This document shows positions 9,952 through 62,473 of a stretch of DNA of 64,000 nt, one piece after another. Location: NCBI GenBank assembly GCA_017962275.1, contig JAGCVQ010000073.1, forward strand, positions 4,543 through 68,542, in the 5' to 3' direction. Source of the stretch: Bacteroidales bacterium (GTDB lineage Bacteria > Bacteroidota > Bacteroidia > Bacteroidales > WCHB1-69). The position numbers and the translations under genes were made by a program. The notes beneath the pieces are model-generated. The model searched no databases. It worked only from the letters and a program-made list of their open reading frames with translations, and had not been told where the DNA came from. Each line of letters starts with the position of its first letter. Position 1 is the stretch's first letter.

Positions 9952-10572
9952 ATGACCTATTTGGAATTCAGAGAGCAGTGGCATACGGTGGGGTGTTTCA
10001 ATATCTACCAAATCCGTGCCTGGAAGCCTGATTTCGACAGAAGCAACCTTTTCCGTTGGGTGAAAAAGGGTTATTTGTCTAAGTTGAGGCAAGATTGGTA
10101 TGCTTTCAGCGACCTCAAGGGTAGTCCTGAAACAGCAAGATATGTGGCGCAGCGGATATACACCCCGTCGTATATCAGCCTACACACCGCATTGTCTTTC
10201 TATGGCATTATTCCTGAAGCGGTGACATCCATCATGTGCGTCACTTCCAATCGTCCAGCCACCTACAGCAACGATTTCGGCGAGTTCAGCTATCAAACGG
10301 TGAAGCCCGCCCTGTTCTTCGGTTACAAGCCCATGATCCTGTCGCCGCATGGCAGCTACCTGCTCGCATTTCCCGAAAAGGCCATCCTCGACCTGCTGTA
10401 TCTTTACCCGCAATACAACACAGAGGAAGCATTGATGGAACTCCGTTTGGATGAATGGTGGATGCAGGAAGAGTTGGACCGAGACCGATTGCTGGCGTAT
10501 TCCGAGCAAAGTGCCGTTAAGGCGTTACAATATAGAGTGAATCTACTGTTAAAAACATACAGAAATGATTGA
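9952..10572 (+). CDS. AbiEi-family antitoxin (type IV TA system)
   Basis: 206 aa. The N-terminal winged-helix-like FRWVKKGYLSKLRQDWYAF and then YISLHTALSFYGIIPE are typical of AbiEi. It overlaps the downstream AbiEii gene by 8 nt. Confidence 0.75.
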   Translation: MTYLEFREQWHTVGCFNIYQIRAWKPDFDRSNLFRWVKKGYLSKLRQDWYAFSDLKGSPETARYVAQRIYTPSYISLHTALSFYGIIPEAVTSIMCVTSNRPATYSNDFGEFSYQTVKPALFFGYKPMILSPHGSYLLAFPEKAILDLLYLYPQYNTEEALMELRLDEWWMQEELDRDRLLAYSEQSAVKALQYRVNLLLKTYRND

Positions 10573-11800
10573 TTTATCCTCACTGTTATCATTCTATCCT
10601 CAACAAATAGCGGCGAATGCTGCATTTCACAAGCATGTTCTCAAAGAATATGTGGAGCTTTTGGCATTAGAGCATCTGATGCAGTCCCCTTTTGCGCCAA
10701 AGTTGGTGTTTGTCTGGGGAACGAATCTCCGTCTTGTATATGGAATTGATCGTTTTTCGGAGGATTTGGGCTTCGACTGCAAAGGTTTGACCTCCGAGGA
10801 ATTCATCAGCATGACGGATTCTTTGGCGGAATATCTTCGTCTTCAGGGACTAAAAGTGGAACTTCGGGACAAGGAAAATCCAAAACTAACGGCGTATCGT
10901 CGCAACATCTTTTTCCCAGAACTACTCTTTGAAATGAATCTTACAGGTCATCGCGAGGAACGGTTTCTAATGAAGATTGAGGCACAAGTTCAGGGGGTGG
11001 ACTATATCCCTCAAACGGCTTTGGTCAATCGCTGTGGTTTTTTCTTTTCGGTCACGGTGCCTTCAAAGGAGACCTTGTTGTCCATGAAACTTTCGGCATT
11101 GTTGGCAAGAGCCAAAGGACGTGATTTTTACGACACGATCTTTTTGTGGCAACAAATCGCCCCTGATTTTGATTTTTTGAAACAACGGAATGGCATAGAG
11201 AATGCAGCCGATTTAAGGAAGGCGTTGTTGGACAAGTTGGAGAACACCAGTCTGTCGCAGAAACAGAAAGATTTCGAGCATCTGCTGTTCAATCCAGTCC
11301 GAAGTGCACAAATATTGCATTTCAGGGAGTTTGTGGAGGAAAAGATTAGTGATGACGGATTTCTATATGCAAATGAGATTGAGTTTAATGGCACTAAGGC
11401 ATATTTAAGCGAAGGACTCGCAGAAGTCGAAATAGGTAAGAAATATGGCTATATTGACAAAGATAAGAATTTGATTATCAACGCTGTTTTTGACGATGCA
11501 TATCCATTTGTCAACGGCACAGCACCTGTTGAAATAAAAGGCAAATGGGGATTGATTAACAAAGAGGGAGAATTTGTGATTGAGCCTAAATATGATGACA
11601 TAACATCATTTCATGAAGGATTGGCTGTGGTTGATCTCGATGGAAAAAGTGGGTATATTAACGAACAAGGTGAAATAGTGATACCGATTGTTTACGAGCA
11701 GGCGTCCGTTTTTCGGGATGGAGTTGCCCTTGTCTCTTTAGATGGCAAGAGTTTTTATCATATTGATAATCAGGGAAAAAAGATAAGGAAATGCGAGTGA
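10565..11800 (+). CDS. AbiEii/AbiGii-family nucleotidyltransferase toxin fused to C-terminal WG (KWG-type) repeats
   Basis: Nucleotidyltransferase signature WGTNLRLVYGIDRFSEDLGFDC. The C-terminal ~130 aa carry four tandem repeats of the GKKYGYIDKDKNLII / KGKWGLINKEGEFVI / DGKSGYINEQGEIVI / DGKSFYHIDNQGKKI type. Confidence 0.8.
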   Translation: MIDLSSLLSFYPQQIAANAAFHKHVLKEYVELLALEHLMQSPFAPKLVFVWGTNLRLVYGIDRFSEDLGFDCKGLTSEEFISMTDSLAEYLRLQGLKVELRDKENPKLTAYRRNIFFPELLFEMNLTGHREERFLMKIEAQVQGVDYIPQTALVNRCGFFFSVTVPSKETLLSMKLSALLARAKGRDFYDTIFLWQQIAPDFDFLKQRNGIENAADLRKALLDKLENTSLSQKQKDFEHLLFNPVRSAQILHFREFVEEKISDDGFLYANEIEFNGTKAYLSEGLAEVEIGKKYGYIDKDKNLIINAVFDDAYPFVNGTAPVEIKGKWGLINKEGEFVIEPKYDDITSFHEGLAVVDLDGKSGYINEQGEIVIPIVYEQASVFRDGVALVSLDGKSFYHIDNQGKKIRKCE

Positions 11801-53639: not shown

Positions 53640-54692
53640 ATGAATCCCGTAACATCCCGACTTCTCAACCAGCAGCTTGTGGCGCCGCAGTTCAGTGATC
53701 CGGCGGAGGTAGTGAGCCATTTGGGCGCGATGCAGGCGCAGGAATACCGACTGATGCGGTGGGCGGTGGCGATGCGTACCCGCAAACCGTCGTTGTCGGC
53801 GTTCACGAAGGCATTCGACGACGGCCGTATCATTCGTATGCACCTCATGCGCGGCACATGGCAGTTGGTGGCCGCCGAGGACTACTGGTGGATGCTCGAA
53901 CTCTGTGCCCCCAAGGCCATCTCAGTCACCAAGGGGTGGATGCACAGCAACAAAATCGACATTCCCGAAAAGGAATACCTGAAAATCAGGGAGATACTGG
54001 CGCAAACCGCCGCCGACAAAGGGAGCGTGACGAAGGAGGATTTCGTGAACGCGCTGTCGGAAAAGGACATCACGATGGATGACCATCGGCTGTCGTATCA
54101 TATCCGCATGTGCGAGATGACGGGAACGCTTTGCAGCGGCAATCTGCAGCCGATGAAAGCGACCTACGCCCTCGCTTCCGAAAAGGTGAAACGGACGGAA
54201 CCCCTCGACCGCGACGAAGCTCTGATGCGCTTCACCCGAAAGTATTTTCAAAGCCGGCAGCCCGCCACATTGGAGGATTTCGTGTGGTGGTCGGGGCTGA
54301 ACATCAGCGACTGCCGAAGGGGAATTGAATTGTTGGGCGATTATCTACATGTAGAGACGCAAAATTTTGCGTCTCTACCACGCAGGGAATTCTATTTGAC
54401 CGACGACTGTCGCACGCGGGGCTTCCGCAAAGGACAATACCTGCTGATTCCGCCCTACGACGAGTACCTGATCGGTTACAAGAGTCGCGACATCGTGCTG
54501 CAGCCGGAGCATCAGCACCGCGCACACAACAACCGGGGCATCTTCCAGCCCATCATCGCCCACGACGGTCTCATCTGCGGCAACTGGGCACCTTTCAAGA
54601 AGGAATTCCAGGTGGAGTTTTTCCGCGAAGGACACAATGCGGAGGATGTGTTAGGTGCGTGGGAGGGGTATGCGCGGTTTCGAGACATGTAA
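53640..54692 (+). CDS. YcaQ/AlkZ-like winged-helix DNA glycosylase family protein (DUF1006), carrying an in-frame palindromic-element insertion
   Basis: LLNQQLVAPQFSDPAEVVSHLGAMQAQEY...RMHLMRGTWQLV is the YcaQ-family N-terminal pattern. Codons ...HVETQNFASLP... are encoded by the 28-nt palindrome at 54351-54378. Confidence 0.8.
   Translation: MNPVTSRLLNQQLVAPQFSDPAEVVSHLGAMQAQEYRLMRWAVAMRTRKPSLSAFTKAFDDGRIIRMHLMRGTWQLVAAEDYWWMLELCAPKAISVTKGWMHSNKIDIPEKEYLKIREILAQTAADKGSVTKEDFVNALSEKDITMDDHRLSYHIRMCEMTGTLCSGNLQPMKATYALASEKVKRTEPLDRDEALMRFTRKYFQSRQPATLEDFVWWSGLNISDCRRGIELLGDYLHVETQNFASLPRREFYLTDDCRTRGFRKGQYLLIPPYDEYLIGYKSRDIVLQPEHQHRAHNNRGIFQPIIAHDGLICGNWAPFKKEFQVEFFREGHNAEDVLGAWEGYARFRDM
54351..54378. 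repeat. Perfect 28-nt palindrome GTAGAGACGCAAAATTTTGCGTCTCTAC (copy 3), inside a CDS
   Basis: Identical to the copy at 9114-9141. It lies within the open reading frame of the YcaQ-like gene. Confidence 0.9.
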
Positions 54693-54728
54693 CGAAGGCC
54701 GCAGTTCCTCTTACGTAACGGTTCCCAA

Positions 54729-55136
54729 CTACACCAGAACGGCATTCCGCATAGTTTCGGCAAATTTGGTCACGCCCGCTTGAATGCGTTTCACGGTCTT
54801 CGGGGAGGGTTTTCTGTATCCAGTGACGTAATGGCTCAGTTGCTTACAGTTGATGCCGGTTGCTTTTGACAATCCGATAAGGGAGAATGGCGAGTATTTG
54901 AGAAACGAGATGGTGTCAAAAACATACTCGAAGTCAAGATGATCGAAATCGAAACTTTCGCCAGCCTCTTCATATACCGCCTTCATTTCTTCTTTGCTGT
55001 TCAGGAGATCGGCCTTTGCCTCCTCAATGGTATCGCCTTGTCCGAGCAGCATAAAACCCAAAGATTCGTCATCAGTATGGATGTCGTAATCCAAATTCTT
55101 TCCAGTTTCTATAATGGCTCTTACTCTCATATTCAT
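54729..55136 (-). CDS. hicB: HicB-family antitoxin with a C-terminal HTH
   Basis: N-terminal HicB-like fold pattern (AIIETGKNLDYDIHTDD...GQGDTIEEAKADL) and C-terminal HTH (LSKATGINCKQLSHYVTGYRKPS). It lies directly downstream of hicA. Confidence 0.75.
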   Translation of the reverse strand: MNMRVRAIIETGKNLDYDIHTDDESLGFMLLGQGDTIEEAKADLLNSKEEMKAVYEEAGESFDFDHLDFEYVFDTISFLKYSPFSLIGLSKATGINCKQLSHYVTGYRKPSPKTVKRIQAGVTKFAETMRNAVLV

Positions 55137-55174
55137 CAGCTTTTTTTATTTCTAACAACTAATTTACGGTACCG

Positions 55175-55357
55175 TTATTTGATACCCGCTATTTTTAATA
55201 TTTTCTCCAAAGTTCCTTTTTTCACTTCCTCTGACTTATGATGACCAGTTTGGAAACGTTTCCCTGTTTTCGGACTGTACCATACTGGGTGTGCATTGTT
55301 GCCTACAAGATAGCAACCTGCTTTTCTTAATATCTTTTCTAATTCCGAGTACTTCAT
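55175..55357 (-). CDS. hicA: HicA-family mRNA interferase toxin
   Basis: 60 aa. MKYSELEKILRKAGCYLVGNNAHPVWYSPKTGKRFQTGHHKSEEVKKGTLEKILKIAGI matches the HicA/YcfA pattern. A -7 box lies 23 nt upstream. Confidence 0.8.
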   Translation of the reverse strand: MKYSELEKILRKAGCYLVGNNAHPVWYSPKTGKRFQTGHHKSEEVKKGTLEKILKIAGIK

Positions 55358-55379
55358 ATTTTTGTTTTCAAAAACGCTG

Positions 55380-55387
55380 CAAAGATA
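55380..55387 (-). promoter_or_regulatory. -7 box TAtcTTTG for hicAB
   Basis: 23 nt before the start at 55357. Confidence 0.55.
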
Positions 55388-55461
55388 GAAAAAAAACTAA
55401 CATACATAAGTTCTTCAAAAATTTTTTCCCTTACGAATGTGAACTTGACCAGGATTTTTTT

Positions 55462-55469
55462 TACTTTTG
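55462..55469 (+). promoter_or_regulatory. -7 box TActTTTG for the AT-rich unknown gene
   Basis: 58 nt before the ATG at 55527. Confidence 0.4.
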
Positions 55470-55526
55470 CCGCCTTAAGTGTATTAACATGTAATTAAAT
55501 TGTTGCTCCCGACACAAAAAAGGGAT

Positions 55527-56615
55527 ATGAGTATGAAAATTGAAATTGGAGAATCTTTAATTTATACATGGCTTCGTCATGTCAAGGGTTGTCAAACAGT
55601 TCAAACGAATTGGAGACCATCCGAACTATGGTCTCTTAATAATATACGAGATTTGGAGGCCATTATGGATGCTGTTAATAAACGATTTCCTAACTATTCC
55701 ATATTTGGTCATAAAAAGAACGTGTCATTAATACAATTTATTGGGCAAGCAGAAATAGATGTCATAGGTTCCTGTAATGTAGGTGACAAAATTTATGCCG
55801 TGGACGTTGCCTATCATGAAAGTGGTTTAAATTATGGTGGAGGTGATGAAAACACAGCTAGAATTATCAAGAAATGCTTACGTTCGGCAATGTGTGTTTA
55901 TGGCTATTTTAACAAGAAAGATGCAGAAATCGTTTTTGTTGCGCCCAAAATCCATAATGCAGACTGGCCATTAATATGTCAAGGCATTGATGACCTAGAA
56001 AACGAATTGAAACAATTGGGATATAATTTTGTTTTTAAAGTGATTTGCGATCAGTCAAATCCCAATTTTCAAGCAGAGATATTAGATTCTGTAATAGGGG
56101 TGATAGATAACATCTCTGATACCAATGAGCTGTTTGTCAGAAGTGTTCAATTGTTGAATATGTTTTACAACTGTACATCAAAAAATGTAACAACCATACC
56201 CAATATACGTGTTGTGACCTCACCCGCGAATAAACCTCAGATTCGCATGGTTTTAAACAGAACTGACTCATCCGCAGCAAATGCTAGTCATTTTAAAGTA
56301 TATTTGAGTTCTGTAATGAAAAGTAACGGAACCCCTTTTTCTCCAACTTCAATCAATAATTATTGTTCTTCATTAAATTATTCTTTATTCAAAGAAGTTT
56401 TGGTTAACCATGGTCTTTCTGAAGACATCTACGACTGTACAGACATAACAGCATTGAAAGCAGTCTATGATGAACTCAAGCGACAAACTACTCCCATTGC
56501 TCGAAAAGTAAAGAACGAGCGGCATGGATCTTGTACATCAGCATTACGAGAATACACTAATTATTTACGAGAATACTCCTTGGCCACTAATGATAATAAT
56601 CAAGTTTTTGCTTGA
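55527..56615 (+). CDS. Hypothetical protein in an AT-rich islet (possible nuclease-like N-terminal domain; function unknown)
   Basis: Long clean ORF in visibly AT-rich DNA with A/T-ending codons. The track start is TTG at 55500; the first ATG is at 55527. I recognise no family; the spacing of acidic and Lys residues (E..EIDVIG..AVDVAYHE..IIKKC) is only suggestive. Confidence 0.65.
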   Translation: MSMKIEIGESLIYTWLRHVKGCQTVQTNWRPSELWSLNNIRDLEAIMDAVNKRFPNYSIFGHKKNVSLIQFIGQAEIDVIGSCNVGDKIYAVDVAYHESGLNYGGGDENTARIIKKCLRSAMCVYGYFNKKDAEIVFVAPKIHNADWPLICQGIDDLENELKQLGYNFVFKVICDQSNPNFQAEILDSVIGVIDNISDTNELFVRSVQLLNMFYNCTSKNVTTIPNIRVVTSPANKPQIRMVLNRTDSSAANASHFKVYLSSVMKSNGTPFSPTSINNYCSSLNYSLFKEVLVNHGLSEDIYDCTDITALKAVYDELKRQTTPIARKVKNERHGSCTSALREYTNYLREYSLATNDNNQVFA

Positions 56616-56701
56616 ATTCTACTGTTTTAAAGTTTTCCAAATGAAAATATAGTTCTTTCACTAACTGTTCTTTTGCCACCTCAAAATTCTACGTTAGAAC
56701 A

Positions 56702-57331
56702 ATGAATATCCGATTAGAACAACCGCAAGATTACCGCGAGGTGGAGAACCTCACGCGCGAGGCATTCTGGAACGTCTATCGTCCGGGATGCACAGAGCAT
56801 TATGTGCTCAATCAATATAGAAACAACCCCGATTTTATTCCGGAACTGGATTTCGTGATGGAAGAAAATGGTCATATCATTGGGCATGTGATGTTTTCGA
56901 ATGCTGAAATCACCTTTGATGACGGCACTGCCTTTCCTTCCTGGACTTTCGGCCCCATCAGCATCCATCCCGACTACAAGCACAAAGGCTACGGACTAAA
57001 ACTGCTGCAATATGCGCTGGAGAAAGCCAAAGCGATGGGCATCGGTCTGCTCCAGATGGAGGGCAACATCGACTTCTACAAACACGCCGGCTTCGACTTC
57101 GCCAACAAGCTCCACATCCATTATCACGCGGAACCGCGGGAGTCGGAAGTGCCATACTTTCTCGCGCAAGAGCTCATCCCCGGCTACTGGGGCGACCGCG
57201 AAGGAACTTATTGTCCTCCAAAGGGTTATTTTGTGGCAGATGAGAACCCAGAGGCGTTTGAGGCATACGAGGCGACATTTCCTTATAAAGAGAAATTGCG
57301 GTTGCCAGGACAGTTGGGGTACGAAGAATAA
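56702..57331 (+). CDS. GNAT-family N-acetyltransferase
   Basis: GPISIHPDYKHKGYGLKLLQYALEKAKAMG is the acetyl-CoA-binding motif A. Confidence 0.8.
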   Translation: MNIRLEQPQDYREVENLTREAFWNVYRPGCTEHYVLNQYRNNPDFIPELDFVMEENGHIIGHVMFSNAEITFDDGTAFPSWTFGPISIHPDYKHKGYGLKLLQYALEKAKAMGIGLLQMEGNIDFYKHAGFDFANKLHIHYHAEPRESEVPYFLAQELIPGYWGDREGTYCPPKGYFVADENPEAFEAYEATFPYKEKLRLPGQLGYEE

Positions 57332-60831: not shown

Positions 60832-61283
60832 GGCTGCTCAAACATTACCGTTTCGGCTTTGACCTGTCGGGGCTAATCCTCTTCCTGTTGGTGATGCTCC
60901 CGAACTTCATCTGGTTTGCCGTCCCTGCACCAAATGATGTTTTACGAACAGAATCGGTCACGCCGGTGGTGGATGTCATTGCATCCATTTGCCAAGTCCT
61001 GACCGTCGTCTGCCTCTGCTTTCTTATCAATGAAGAAAGAGGTAAGCTACGTTTCTCACCGTTGGTTATCGCCGCAGTCGTCTGTGTTGCAGTCTATTAC
61101 CTAGGCTGGGTGTTGTACTATTCCGGCATCGCCAACGCATGGGTCATTCTCCTGCTGACCCTCCCGCCCTGCTTGGCGTTCATCCTTTTCGCCGTAGACC
61201 GTAAGAACCTCCCGGCGGTGTTGTTCGCTTCGGTATTTGCGGTAGGGCATTTGGTTTTTGGGGTGGTGAATTTTGTGATTTGA
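60828..61283 (+). CDS. Hypothetical membrane protein
   Basis: ATGA overlap with the CAT-like gene. 151 aa with 4-5 hydrophobic helices. Confidence 0.55.
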   Translation: MRLLKHYRFGFDLSGLILFLLVMLPNFIWFAVPAPNDVLRTESVTPVVDVIASICQVLTVVCLCFLINEERGKLRFSPLVIAAVVCVAVYYLGWVLYYSGIANAWVILLLTLPPCLAFILFAVDRKNLPAVLFASVFAVGHLVFGVVNFVI

Positions 61284-61287
61284 CGAA

Positions 61288-61345
61288 ATTCGTCACCAGC
61301 TTGGTGACGAATTAGAGGCTGCAATTCGTCAACGACTTGTTGACG
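61288..61345. repeat. Two adjacent hairpins sharing the core TTCGTCA(C/A)C
   Basis: AATTCGTCACCA-gct-TGGTGACGAATT has a 12-bp perfect stem. TTCGTCAAC-gactt-GTTGACGAA has a 9-bp stem. Both lie between convergent genes and may act as terminators or a protein-binding site. Confidence 0.75.
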
Positions 61346-61369
61346 AAAAAGGGATATTTACACTCTGTC

Positions 61370-62143
61370 TTATTCTTCATTCCCGTTTTCTAACGGCATC
61401 AAATCAATAATGCTCCCGTTGCATTGCGGAAAGTTTTTGCAGACAATCTGATCAAAATCGTCATCACTACGGTATTGTGGACTCATCCTGATAGCCTTGA
61501 CATACCTATATTTAAATCGATCACCGCAATGCAAACATTCCACGGTTTCCTCGAGTGAGAAACCTAATCCTTTTTCTTGATGGTCTTTAATGGCGGCCAT
61601 TTTATCTTGCTCGTTAAGTTCGATGTACATTTCTTCAAAATTTAAGTTGTTATTATTTGGGGTTAAATTGACTGGCGTAGAGTTCCATTTCTTTGCCAAA
61701 TCGATTCGATAAGGAATAAAATCACTGCGATGTTCATCGGAGTTTAGAAACACCTGCTTGAATATTTCAAGTTTCATTTCATTATTAAATGAAGTATTGT
61801 TCATGTCTTCAGCTTCGGCGATGTACCAATCCCATTCTTCAATACTTATTTTATGGGCATTGTCAAACAGAAGATGTGCAAGTTCCAATTCTGCTGAGGT
61901 TGCTTTCAATAAGGTACTCCAGTTTGAAAATCCAGCAACTTTAGCAATGACATGTTGAGCATTCATTAATGTGAAACTAAAAGATGATTTGTCATCGTTT
62001 AATTCCAAATCAAGGAAAATTCCTCCAATGTCAAAAAAATTAGGGCTGTACTCGTAAAAACCTTCCTTGGGGTTGAAATAACGAGTTTTGTAATCTTTTA
62101 GAAGATTCTTAGCTTGAAGCTTAAAATACTCAATGTGGTCCAT
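61370..62143 (-). CDS. Hypothetical protein with a C-terminal Cys4 zinc-ribbon-like motif (AT-rich islet)
   Basis: 257-aa clean ORF in AT-rich DNA. The C-terminus reads CLHCGDRF...VCKNFPQCNGS (CxxC...CxxxxxC). Confidence 0.6.
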   Translation of the reverse strand: MDHIEYFKLQAKNLLKDYKTRYFNPKEGFYEYSPNFFDIGGIFLDLELNDDKSSFSFTLMNAQHVIAKVAGFSNWSTLLKATSAELELAHLLFDNAHKISIEEWDWYIAEAEDMNNTSFNNEMKLEIFKQVFLNSDEHRSDFIPYRIDLAKKWNSTPVNLTPNNNNLNFEEMYIELNEQDKMAAIKDHQEKGLGFSLEETVECLHCGDRFKYRYVKAIRMSPQYRSDDDFDQIVCKNFPQCNGSIIDLMPLENGNEE

Positions 62144-62473
62144 AATGTTTAATCTTTATTATGTGCCAAAGCTTTTATCTATAAAATAACCCGTACCTTT
62201 AGTGACAAAAACCATGACACTTAGGTTAAACATTAAACCCACGAGTGGTATGATAAAATCTTCGCACGGGCAGCAGGCGTTACCACTAAAACCGATGGCA
62301 AAAATATAAAAGTTTTTAATACGTCGACATTCATACTTGAAGGTTTTAATAACATGGGTGCGTTAACTTTTTCAAGGTTAGTGTAAATCTTTGATAATAT
62401 ATGAATTATGACGTTTGTCAATGAACTCGATATGAAATCATTTGGTGCAAGGCGTGTTGGAAACACGCAATCC

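Follow-up and report, generated by a model that had tools for sequence, protein, structure and literature searches.

Solitary restriction endonucleases of the Type IV-like kind (Mrr-like, MspJI-like) unite in one gene an effector and a separable small recognition domain; they have no obligate methyltransferase, occur in defence islands, are patchily distributed and are found as AT-rich cargo. These properties are shared by the gene for a 360-amino-acid (aa) protein described here, which lies in a stretch of 64,000 nucleotides (nt) from a rumen Bacteroidales bacterium (assembly GCA_017962275.1, contig JAGCVQ010000073.1, positions 4,543 to 68,542; this whole stretch is called the window below, and coordinates are counted from its first letter). 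The protein differs from the Type IV-like enzymes in that it contains no recognisable PD-(D/E)xK, HNH, PLD, GIY-YIG or known reader domain, and in the order of its parts, a putative catalytic domain at the N-terminus being followed by a disordered linker and a putative recognition domain at the C-terminus. Beside its gene stands a pair that resembles the HicAB type II toxin–antitoxin (TA) systems, in which the gene of a small toxin precedes that of a small antitoxin with a DNA-binding domain, and the pair can form a stand-alone mobile cassette. This work shows that the two lie together in an islet of mobile DNA, and that the 360-aa protein represents a modular family spread over at least eight phyla. 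Tentatively, and with slightly more doubt than confidence, we read this protein as a stand-alone restriction-like defence effector, whose N-terminal domain (N-domain) would cleave nucleic acid and whose exchangeable C-terminal domain (C-domain) would recognise the target.

The 360-aa protein and its family

The gene and the three parts of its product are the following (pLDDT, predicted local distance difference test; dN/dS, ratio of nonsynonymous to synonymous substitution rates).

55533..56615, + strand: 360-aa protein of an unannotated family (MKIExGES ... DVA[FY]HE ... DTxELFxRS), 542 homologues
55533..56177, + strand: conserved N-terminal alpha/beta domain, residues 1-215, putative catalytic effector
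56178..56270, + strand: low-complexity disordered linker, residues ~216-246 (pLDDT <50, no conservation, dN/dS 0.54)
56271..56612, + strand: rare helical C-terminal domain of six helices (pLDDT ~90 over the C-terminal 110 aa)

The reading frame is open from 55500/55527 to 56615, and its likely start is 55533, because every homologue begins MKIE. A preliminary description, made from the letters of this stretch, had reported a clean divergent open reading frame (ORF) of 363 aa with its own -7 box; the frame and the box stand, and the length does not, since even the alternative start at 55527 gives 362 aa. With high confidence, the protein belongs to a large uncharacterised family. The 542 homologues listed above come from a word index, and an exhaustive profile search with a limit of E<=1e-3 yielded 1,890 clusters (formed at 50% identity), 566 of them with E<=1e-30. 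All named family members are annotated 'hypothetical protein', and a literature search with six family protein accessions found no paper that mentions them. Neither the single sequence nor a 48-sequence profile matched an entry in Pfam, NCBIfam, PADLOC, PHROGs or the PDB sequences, PADLOC-DB 2.0 giving 0 families at E<=1. In comparison with a 92%-identical copy, dN/dS is 0.25 over the whole gene and differs between its parts, being lowest in the N-domain (0.19), higher in the C-domain (0.29) and highest in the linker (0.54); judged by its substitutions, the gene is functional and under purifying selection.

At 24 positions of the N-domain, many of which are charged, 65 sequences of 46-94% identity all have the same residue. 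In MKIE numbering these are E7, S8, W13, H16, C20, Q24, N26, W27, W33, E74, D76, G79, D91, A93, H95, G98, Y101, K114, R117, F135, P138, D196, E199 and R203. The motifs that had looked conserved by eye (GES, EIDVIG, DVAYHE, IKKCL) do include family-invariant residues. AlphaFold2 models the N-domain alone with a pLDDT of 92.7 and a predicted template modelling score of 0.90, and the full-length protein with a pLDDT of 83.8. The predicted order of elements, a1-b1-a2-a3-b2-b3-a4-b4-a5-b5-a6-a7, is compatible with the alpha-beta-beta-beta-alpha-beta core of PD-(D/E)xK enzymes, and the order of the motifs fits a restriction-endonuclease-like core, with a Glu in helix 1 and Asp residues where strand 2 begins and where strand 3 ends. 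The weak Foldseek matches repeatedly include restriction enzymes, Mus81, FAN1, Cas4, UL24 and bunyavirus endonucleases. A PD-(D/E)xK identity of the modelled N-domain is thus compatible but unproven.

Among described effectors of PD-(D/E)xK type, Hachiman HamA (PF08878) also has an N-terminal helix with the motif E-x-G-E-x-L. It differs in that the best profile match is E=0.032, in 2 of 48 members, that the hhalign probability of the N-domain is 3.9% (HamA, 7 sequences), and that the window's gene has no HamB helicase neighbour; membership of HamA was rejected on account of the sub-threshold profile and the missing HamB helicase. The hhalign comparison itself has no power, as it gave 1.0% against Mrr_cat (18 sequences) and 0.1% for the HamA-versus-Mrr control.

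The C-domain is the exchangeable part of the protein. When the C-termini of 228 members were clustered, 183 fell into one major class, about 6 into the class of the window's protein, 6 into another and others into several rarer ones, which makes at least six C-terminal classes, and about 13 of the 228 are N-domain-only proteins. The helical C-terminus noticed in the preliminary description was recovered, as six predicted helices. A search with this C-domain retrieved three relatives only. The same domain is also carried by the metagenome protein P0298 (458 aa), behind an unrelated, unannotated N-terminus of 340 aa, and recognition modules appear to be shuffled between effector families. Aligned by hhalign to the N-domain of XerC/D, the C-domain gave a probability of 36.6% (P=3.6e-4), in register over 83 columns, compared with a maximum of 28.8% and a mean of 1.2% in 30 column shuffles; the different C-terminus of P0170 independently gave 37.2% (P ~3.5e-4). 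Both share with Phage_int_SAM_1 (PF02899) of tyrosine recombinases the patterns F-x-x-YL, S-x-x-T-x-x-x-Y and SALR-x-[FY]-x-x-YL, in register. They are set apart from it by the lack of a Pfam match, by the lack of a recombinase catalytic domain in the window's protein and by the position of the window's domain, which is C-terminal to an unrelated enzyme-like domain. The alignment is no more than suggestive of kinship with the integrase N-terminal SAM-like (core-binding) DNA-binding domain.

The family was found at 333 loci in 185,579 GTDB species genomes, in at least eight phyla (Bacteroidota, Bacillota, Campylobacterota, Pseudomonadota, Myxococcota, Cloacimonadota, Chloroflexota, Actinomycetota). 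Searches gave 3 matches in a set of 72,556 plasmids, 21 in one of 2.9 million IMG/VR contigs and none in 50,697 phage genomes. The gene is solitary: clustering of all neighbours at 80 loci revealed no conserved partner gene. It frequently lies near restriction or other defence genes, as was observed when 107 immediate neighbours, from about 63 non-redundant loci, were searched with PADLOC and Pfam. PADLOC matches among them were UzuA (three times), mREase_IV, PbeA, ZacB, PDC-S13 and PDC-M10B (twice each), and also REase_II, a DpnI-type mREase_II, several methyltransferases, PDC-S01/S02/S37 and DruM; 62 ordinary ORFs of the window, taken as background, gave one AbiE pair and generic SbcC-type matches. 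This enrichment is qualitative, because ORF calling was crude. On a Priestia plasmid the family gene is within a cluster of Sau3AI, dcm, MutH-like and SNF2 genes; at other loci it is beside DUF2779 (UzuA), WYL, AAA and zeta-toxin genes, and at another beside genes for an nSTAND NTPase and a Macro-domain protein. One sequence cluster of C5-methyltransferases is represented at just 6 of the ~63 non-redundant loci and no methyltransferase gene is near the window's gene; the cognate methyltransferase that would adjoin most loci of a Type II restriction-modification system is not seen.

A composite islet in a cargo hotspot

The features of the islet around this gene are listed here (HTH, helix–turn–helix).

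54727..56687, no strand: AT-rich composite cargo block (hicB-hicA and the divergent 360-aa ORF), delimited by GC content and by a 93% copy in contig L023
Borders of the slot: AlkZ-like glycosylase gene (ends 54692) on one side, GNAT genes on the other
54729..55130, - strand: HicB-type antitoxin candidate, 133 aa (135 aa from a start at 55136), with a C-terminal XRE-type HTH
55175..55357, - strand: hicA toxin gene, 60 aa, first of the pair, with His23 in a GNNAHP motif (Pfam PF07927)
55358..55532, no strand: divergent intergenic region of 175 nt with two Bacteroidetes-type -7 boxes (TAnnTTTG matches)

The genome to which the window belongs, as contig 28, measures 2.77 Mb and is 94% complete, and the congeners used for comparison are uncultured Bacteroidales metagenome-assembled genomes. 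As first noticed from the letters, the islet is AT-rich: GC content is 0.33-0.37 from 55100 to 56750 (300-nt sliding window, limits approximate), against 0.50-0.58 in both flanks, and hicB is intermediate at 0.39-0.49. The AT-rich stretch consists of three ORFs, hicA, the HTH gene downstream of it and the divergent ORF. With the exact limits 54727-56687 (1.96 kb) it aligns at 93% identity to the metagenome contig L023, where the flanks differ, an additional 178-aa gene lying between AlkZ and hicB and another gene after the ORF. In the sister species G005 the AlkZ-like glycosylase gene on the left and the GNAT2 and PreA-like genes on the right are 92% identical to those of the window, and between AlkZ and GNAT2 there are 2.1 kb of different AT-rich cargo, including the 178-aa gene of L023. 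The presence of other cargo between the same flanking genes identifies the slot as a cargo hotspot. Only short, chance-level direct or inverted repeats flank the block, and no recombinase or integrase gene is nearby. The islet is horizontally acquired DNA, mobile cargo in a chromosomal hotspot; the acquisition proposed in the preliminary description is borne out by composition, by the 93% block with different flanks and by the other cargo in the sister species' slot.

The G005 slot (L010, G005:C196, 2100-4280) carries two paralogous ORFs of 67-71 aa (MKRKKDQ.NR...CEPRVAYN), one of which adjoins a 77-aa ORF, and also ORFs of 129 aa and 178 aa. The first GNAT gene to the right of the islet (56702-57331) is missing from G005 and adjoins GNAT2 in G013 and G009, and the variable segment of the hotspot therefore reaches ~57334.

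The left third of the islet, and no more of it, is accounted for by the hicAB cassette. The hicA product is a significant member of HicA_toxin (PF07927; E=8.2e-12, 45.5 bits for a cut-off of 27), full-length since its residues 4-59 cover profile positions 2-58 of 58, and it matches PHROG 353 'toxin' at 1e-14. The second gene begins 38-44 nt downstream of hicA and is co-directional, so that the pair has the organization of a HicAB module, a toxin gene upstream of a small antitoxin gene with an HTH-like stretch. Unlike the antitoxins of described systems, this protein fits no HicB model: no HicB family match was found in Pfam, NCBIfam or PHROGs, nor a sequence match in the PDB, and its 133 homologues, which are 133 aa long, form a narrow Bacteroidales clade annotated only as 'helix-turn-helix transcriptional regulator'. 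Its position, size and architecture, together with a weak HTH_3 match below cut-off (residues 89-118, E=0.005), make it a candidate HicB-type antitoxin. The pair on the minus strand had been called hicA-hicB from the start; the first name is upheld by PF07927, and the second by these weaker features only. Relative to the L023 copy, dN/dS is 0.04 for hicA, and dN is 0 for the antitoxin candidate. The two genes are kept together in L023 and in G010, a congener in which the pair stands alone at 73-77% aa identity. This cassette is a HicA/HicB type II TA pair: HicA is an mRNA-cleaving toxin, and the candidate antitoxin, with its HTH, would neutralise it and probably repress its own promoter.

The intergenic region contains one TAnnTTTG box at 55462-55469 (+), ahead of the ORF, and one at 55380-55387 (-), ahead of hicA; this motif was used as promoter signal, a sigma-70 scan not being meaningful for Bacteroidales. 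Nucleotide homology to the stand-alone hicAB of G010 ends at window position 55406, near which lies the junction of the two cassettes. In another congener, G003 (G003:C8, L026), a 62%-identical homologue of the ORF is found in a different AT-rich islet, without hicAB. With high confidence, then, the islet consists of two unrelated mobile cassettes placed side by side in a hotspot; the hicAB cassette and the hotspot are in themselves ordinary. In G003 the homologue, of 353 aa (L011, G003:C8, 3695-6024), lies between two paralogous genes of 142 aa and 225 aa that share 'CKLSYSP(D/N)SNYVEITLD..GLLQFM.LLRSKKGKL', perhaps an immunity-like or accessory repeat.

Three further features of the window were recorded. 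A pair of AbiEi (9952..10572, 206 aa) and AbiEii (10565..11800, 411 aa, extended at its C-terminus by KWG repeats) reaches PADLOC E-values down to 2.4e-93 and gives the window a second module of defence or TA type; its coordinates were set by eye. A perfect 28-nt palindrome, GTAGAGACGCAAAATTTTGCGTCTCTAC, is located at 54351-54378, where it forms an in-frame part of the AlkZ-like glycosylase ORF and encodes the peptide VETQNFASL; with up to 2 mismatches, this element has 101 copies in the window's genome, it is present in nearly all congeners, and in G005 its centre differs at the same site. A second AT-rich patch at 61250-62150 (GC ~0.35) contains a 257-aa ORF (61370..62143, - strand) with no Pfam match.

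Possible roles of the 360-aa protein

In the reading that we favour, the second cassette consists of one gene, complete in itself and served by a promoter of its own, which would encode a nucleic-acid-targeting defence effector; its catalysis, substrate and defence role are what we infer here. The 215-aa N-domain would be a metal-dependent nuclease whose acidic and basic invariant residues succeed one another as in a restriction-endonuclease-like core: helix 1 contributes E7, strand 2 opens with E74-x-D76, strand 3 closes with D91, and the following helix carries K114/R117. The small exchangeable C-domain, which in the window's protein is helical and resembles an integrase core-binding domain, would bind or recognise the target, and the whole protein would combat invading DNA as a solitary enzyme, either by restriction of the Type IV-like kind or by abortive infection. 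Several observations weigh against this reading. Foldseek found nothing at E<=0.001, either with the full-length model (PDB and BFVD) or with the N-domain model (PDB); the best matches were at E=0.069 in the PDB, with a TM of 0.29 at most, and at E=2.9e-3 in BFVD. The restriction-endonuclease type is only a weak theme in a set that also holds flavodoxin-, CD38- and PP-loop-type folds, among unrelated Rossmann-like matches. The catalytic D...(D/E)-x-K motif is incomplete, as D76 and D91 are invariant and well placed but the Lys position is occupied by an invariant Ala (D91-V-A93); the Lys of a PD-(D/E)xK enzyme would need to be supplied by K114 or K139. The 48 members scanned singly gave scattered sub-threshold matches, those to HamA included, and no consistent PHROG. 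The PD-(D/E)xK-like nuclease suggested in the preliminary description is therefore not confirmed, neither a profile match nor a significant Foldseek match being obtained despite a well-predicted model. In addition, the neighbourhood enrichment was estimated from ORFs that were called crudely and against a small background, and the family gene of Campylobacter concisus and C. showae is alone between the housekeeping genes EamA and kdsA, with no defence island.

The missing (D/E)xK lysine and the failure to detect a nuclease fold would be expected of a defence or conflict effector whose N-domain is an enzyme other than a nuclease, acting perhaps on nucleotides or NAD or modifying bases, and is directed or set off by the C-domain. 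The weak Foldseek matches to CD38, TIR, flavodoxin-like, PP-loop and ThrRS-editing folds point the same way, and the defence-gene neighbourhood is equally consistent with it, but none of those matches is significant, the conserved acidic order better suits a metal-dependent phosphodiesterase and the C-domains look DNA-binding; we consider such an enzyme unlikely. A protein of mobile DNA that binds DNA or regulates without catalysis would account for a C-domain that may bind DNA and for the lack of an assigned enzyme family. It accounts poorly for a globular 215-aa domain in which 24 positions are invariant, with D, E, H, K and R prominent among them, and for the existence of N-domain-only forms, so that we judge it very improbable.

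Two other explanations concern the context of the gene. The divergent arrangement, with both -7 boxes within 175 nt, and the presence of the whole block at 93% in a second genome could mean that hicAB and the ORF are one three-gene unit, in which for instance HicB would control the ORF from the shared region, or HicA would be an abortive arm. Co-occurrence is however confined to near-identical copies: tblastn found neither HicA nor HicB at any of 80 other family loci, hicAB occurs alone in G010, where homology ends within the shared region, and the G003 homologue has no hicAB. We give this unit little credence, and a functional ORF–hicAB linkage was rejected on the absence of hicAB from these loci and its solitary state in G010. 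The proposal of a defence effector beside a TA module consequently survives in one half, solo relatives being found near restriction-modification, Uzume, PbeA, PDC and Type IV genes, and fails in the other, the pairing with hicAB. The gene might also be selfish and of no benefit to its host, encoding an orphan toxin or a free-standing endonuclease of the homing type and spreading by insertion between conserved genes. The precise insertion of a solo AT-rich gene between Campylobacter housekeeping genes, its patchy distribution and the lack of an integrase or flanking repeats nearby would suit this. Against it stand the purifying selection on the gene, its stable synteny across ~14 Campylobacter genomes (a synteny seen solely within C. 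concisus and C. showae) and the near-absence of the family from phages, where homing endonucleases thrive; a selfish gene seems to us distinctly improbable.

The restriction-like effector that we favour can be taken one step further. The N-domain could be an unrecognised catalytic fold, or a restriction-endonuclease-like core diverged past detection, and would then define a new widespread single-gene anti-phage family (~1,900 clusters, at least eight phyla) that draws its specificity from plug-in C-terminal modules shared with other effector families; this we regard as possible but rather doubtful. Should the family prove to act in defence, it would be a compact system of one gene that spans phyla, built around a catalytic domain missed by present profile and structure libraries, and it would provide a clear case of recognition domains shuffled between effectors.

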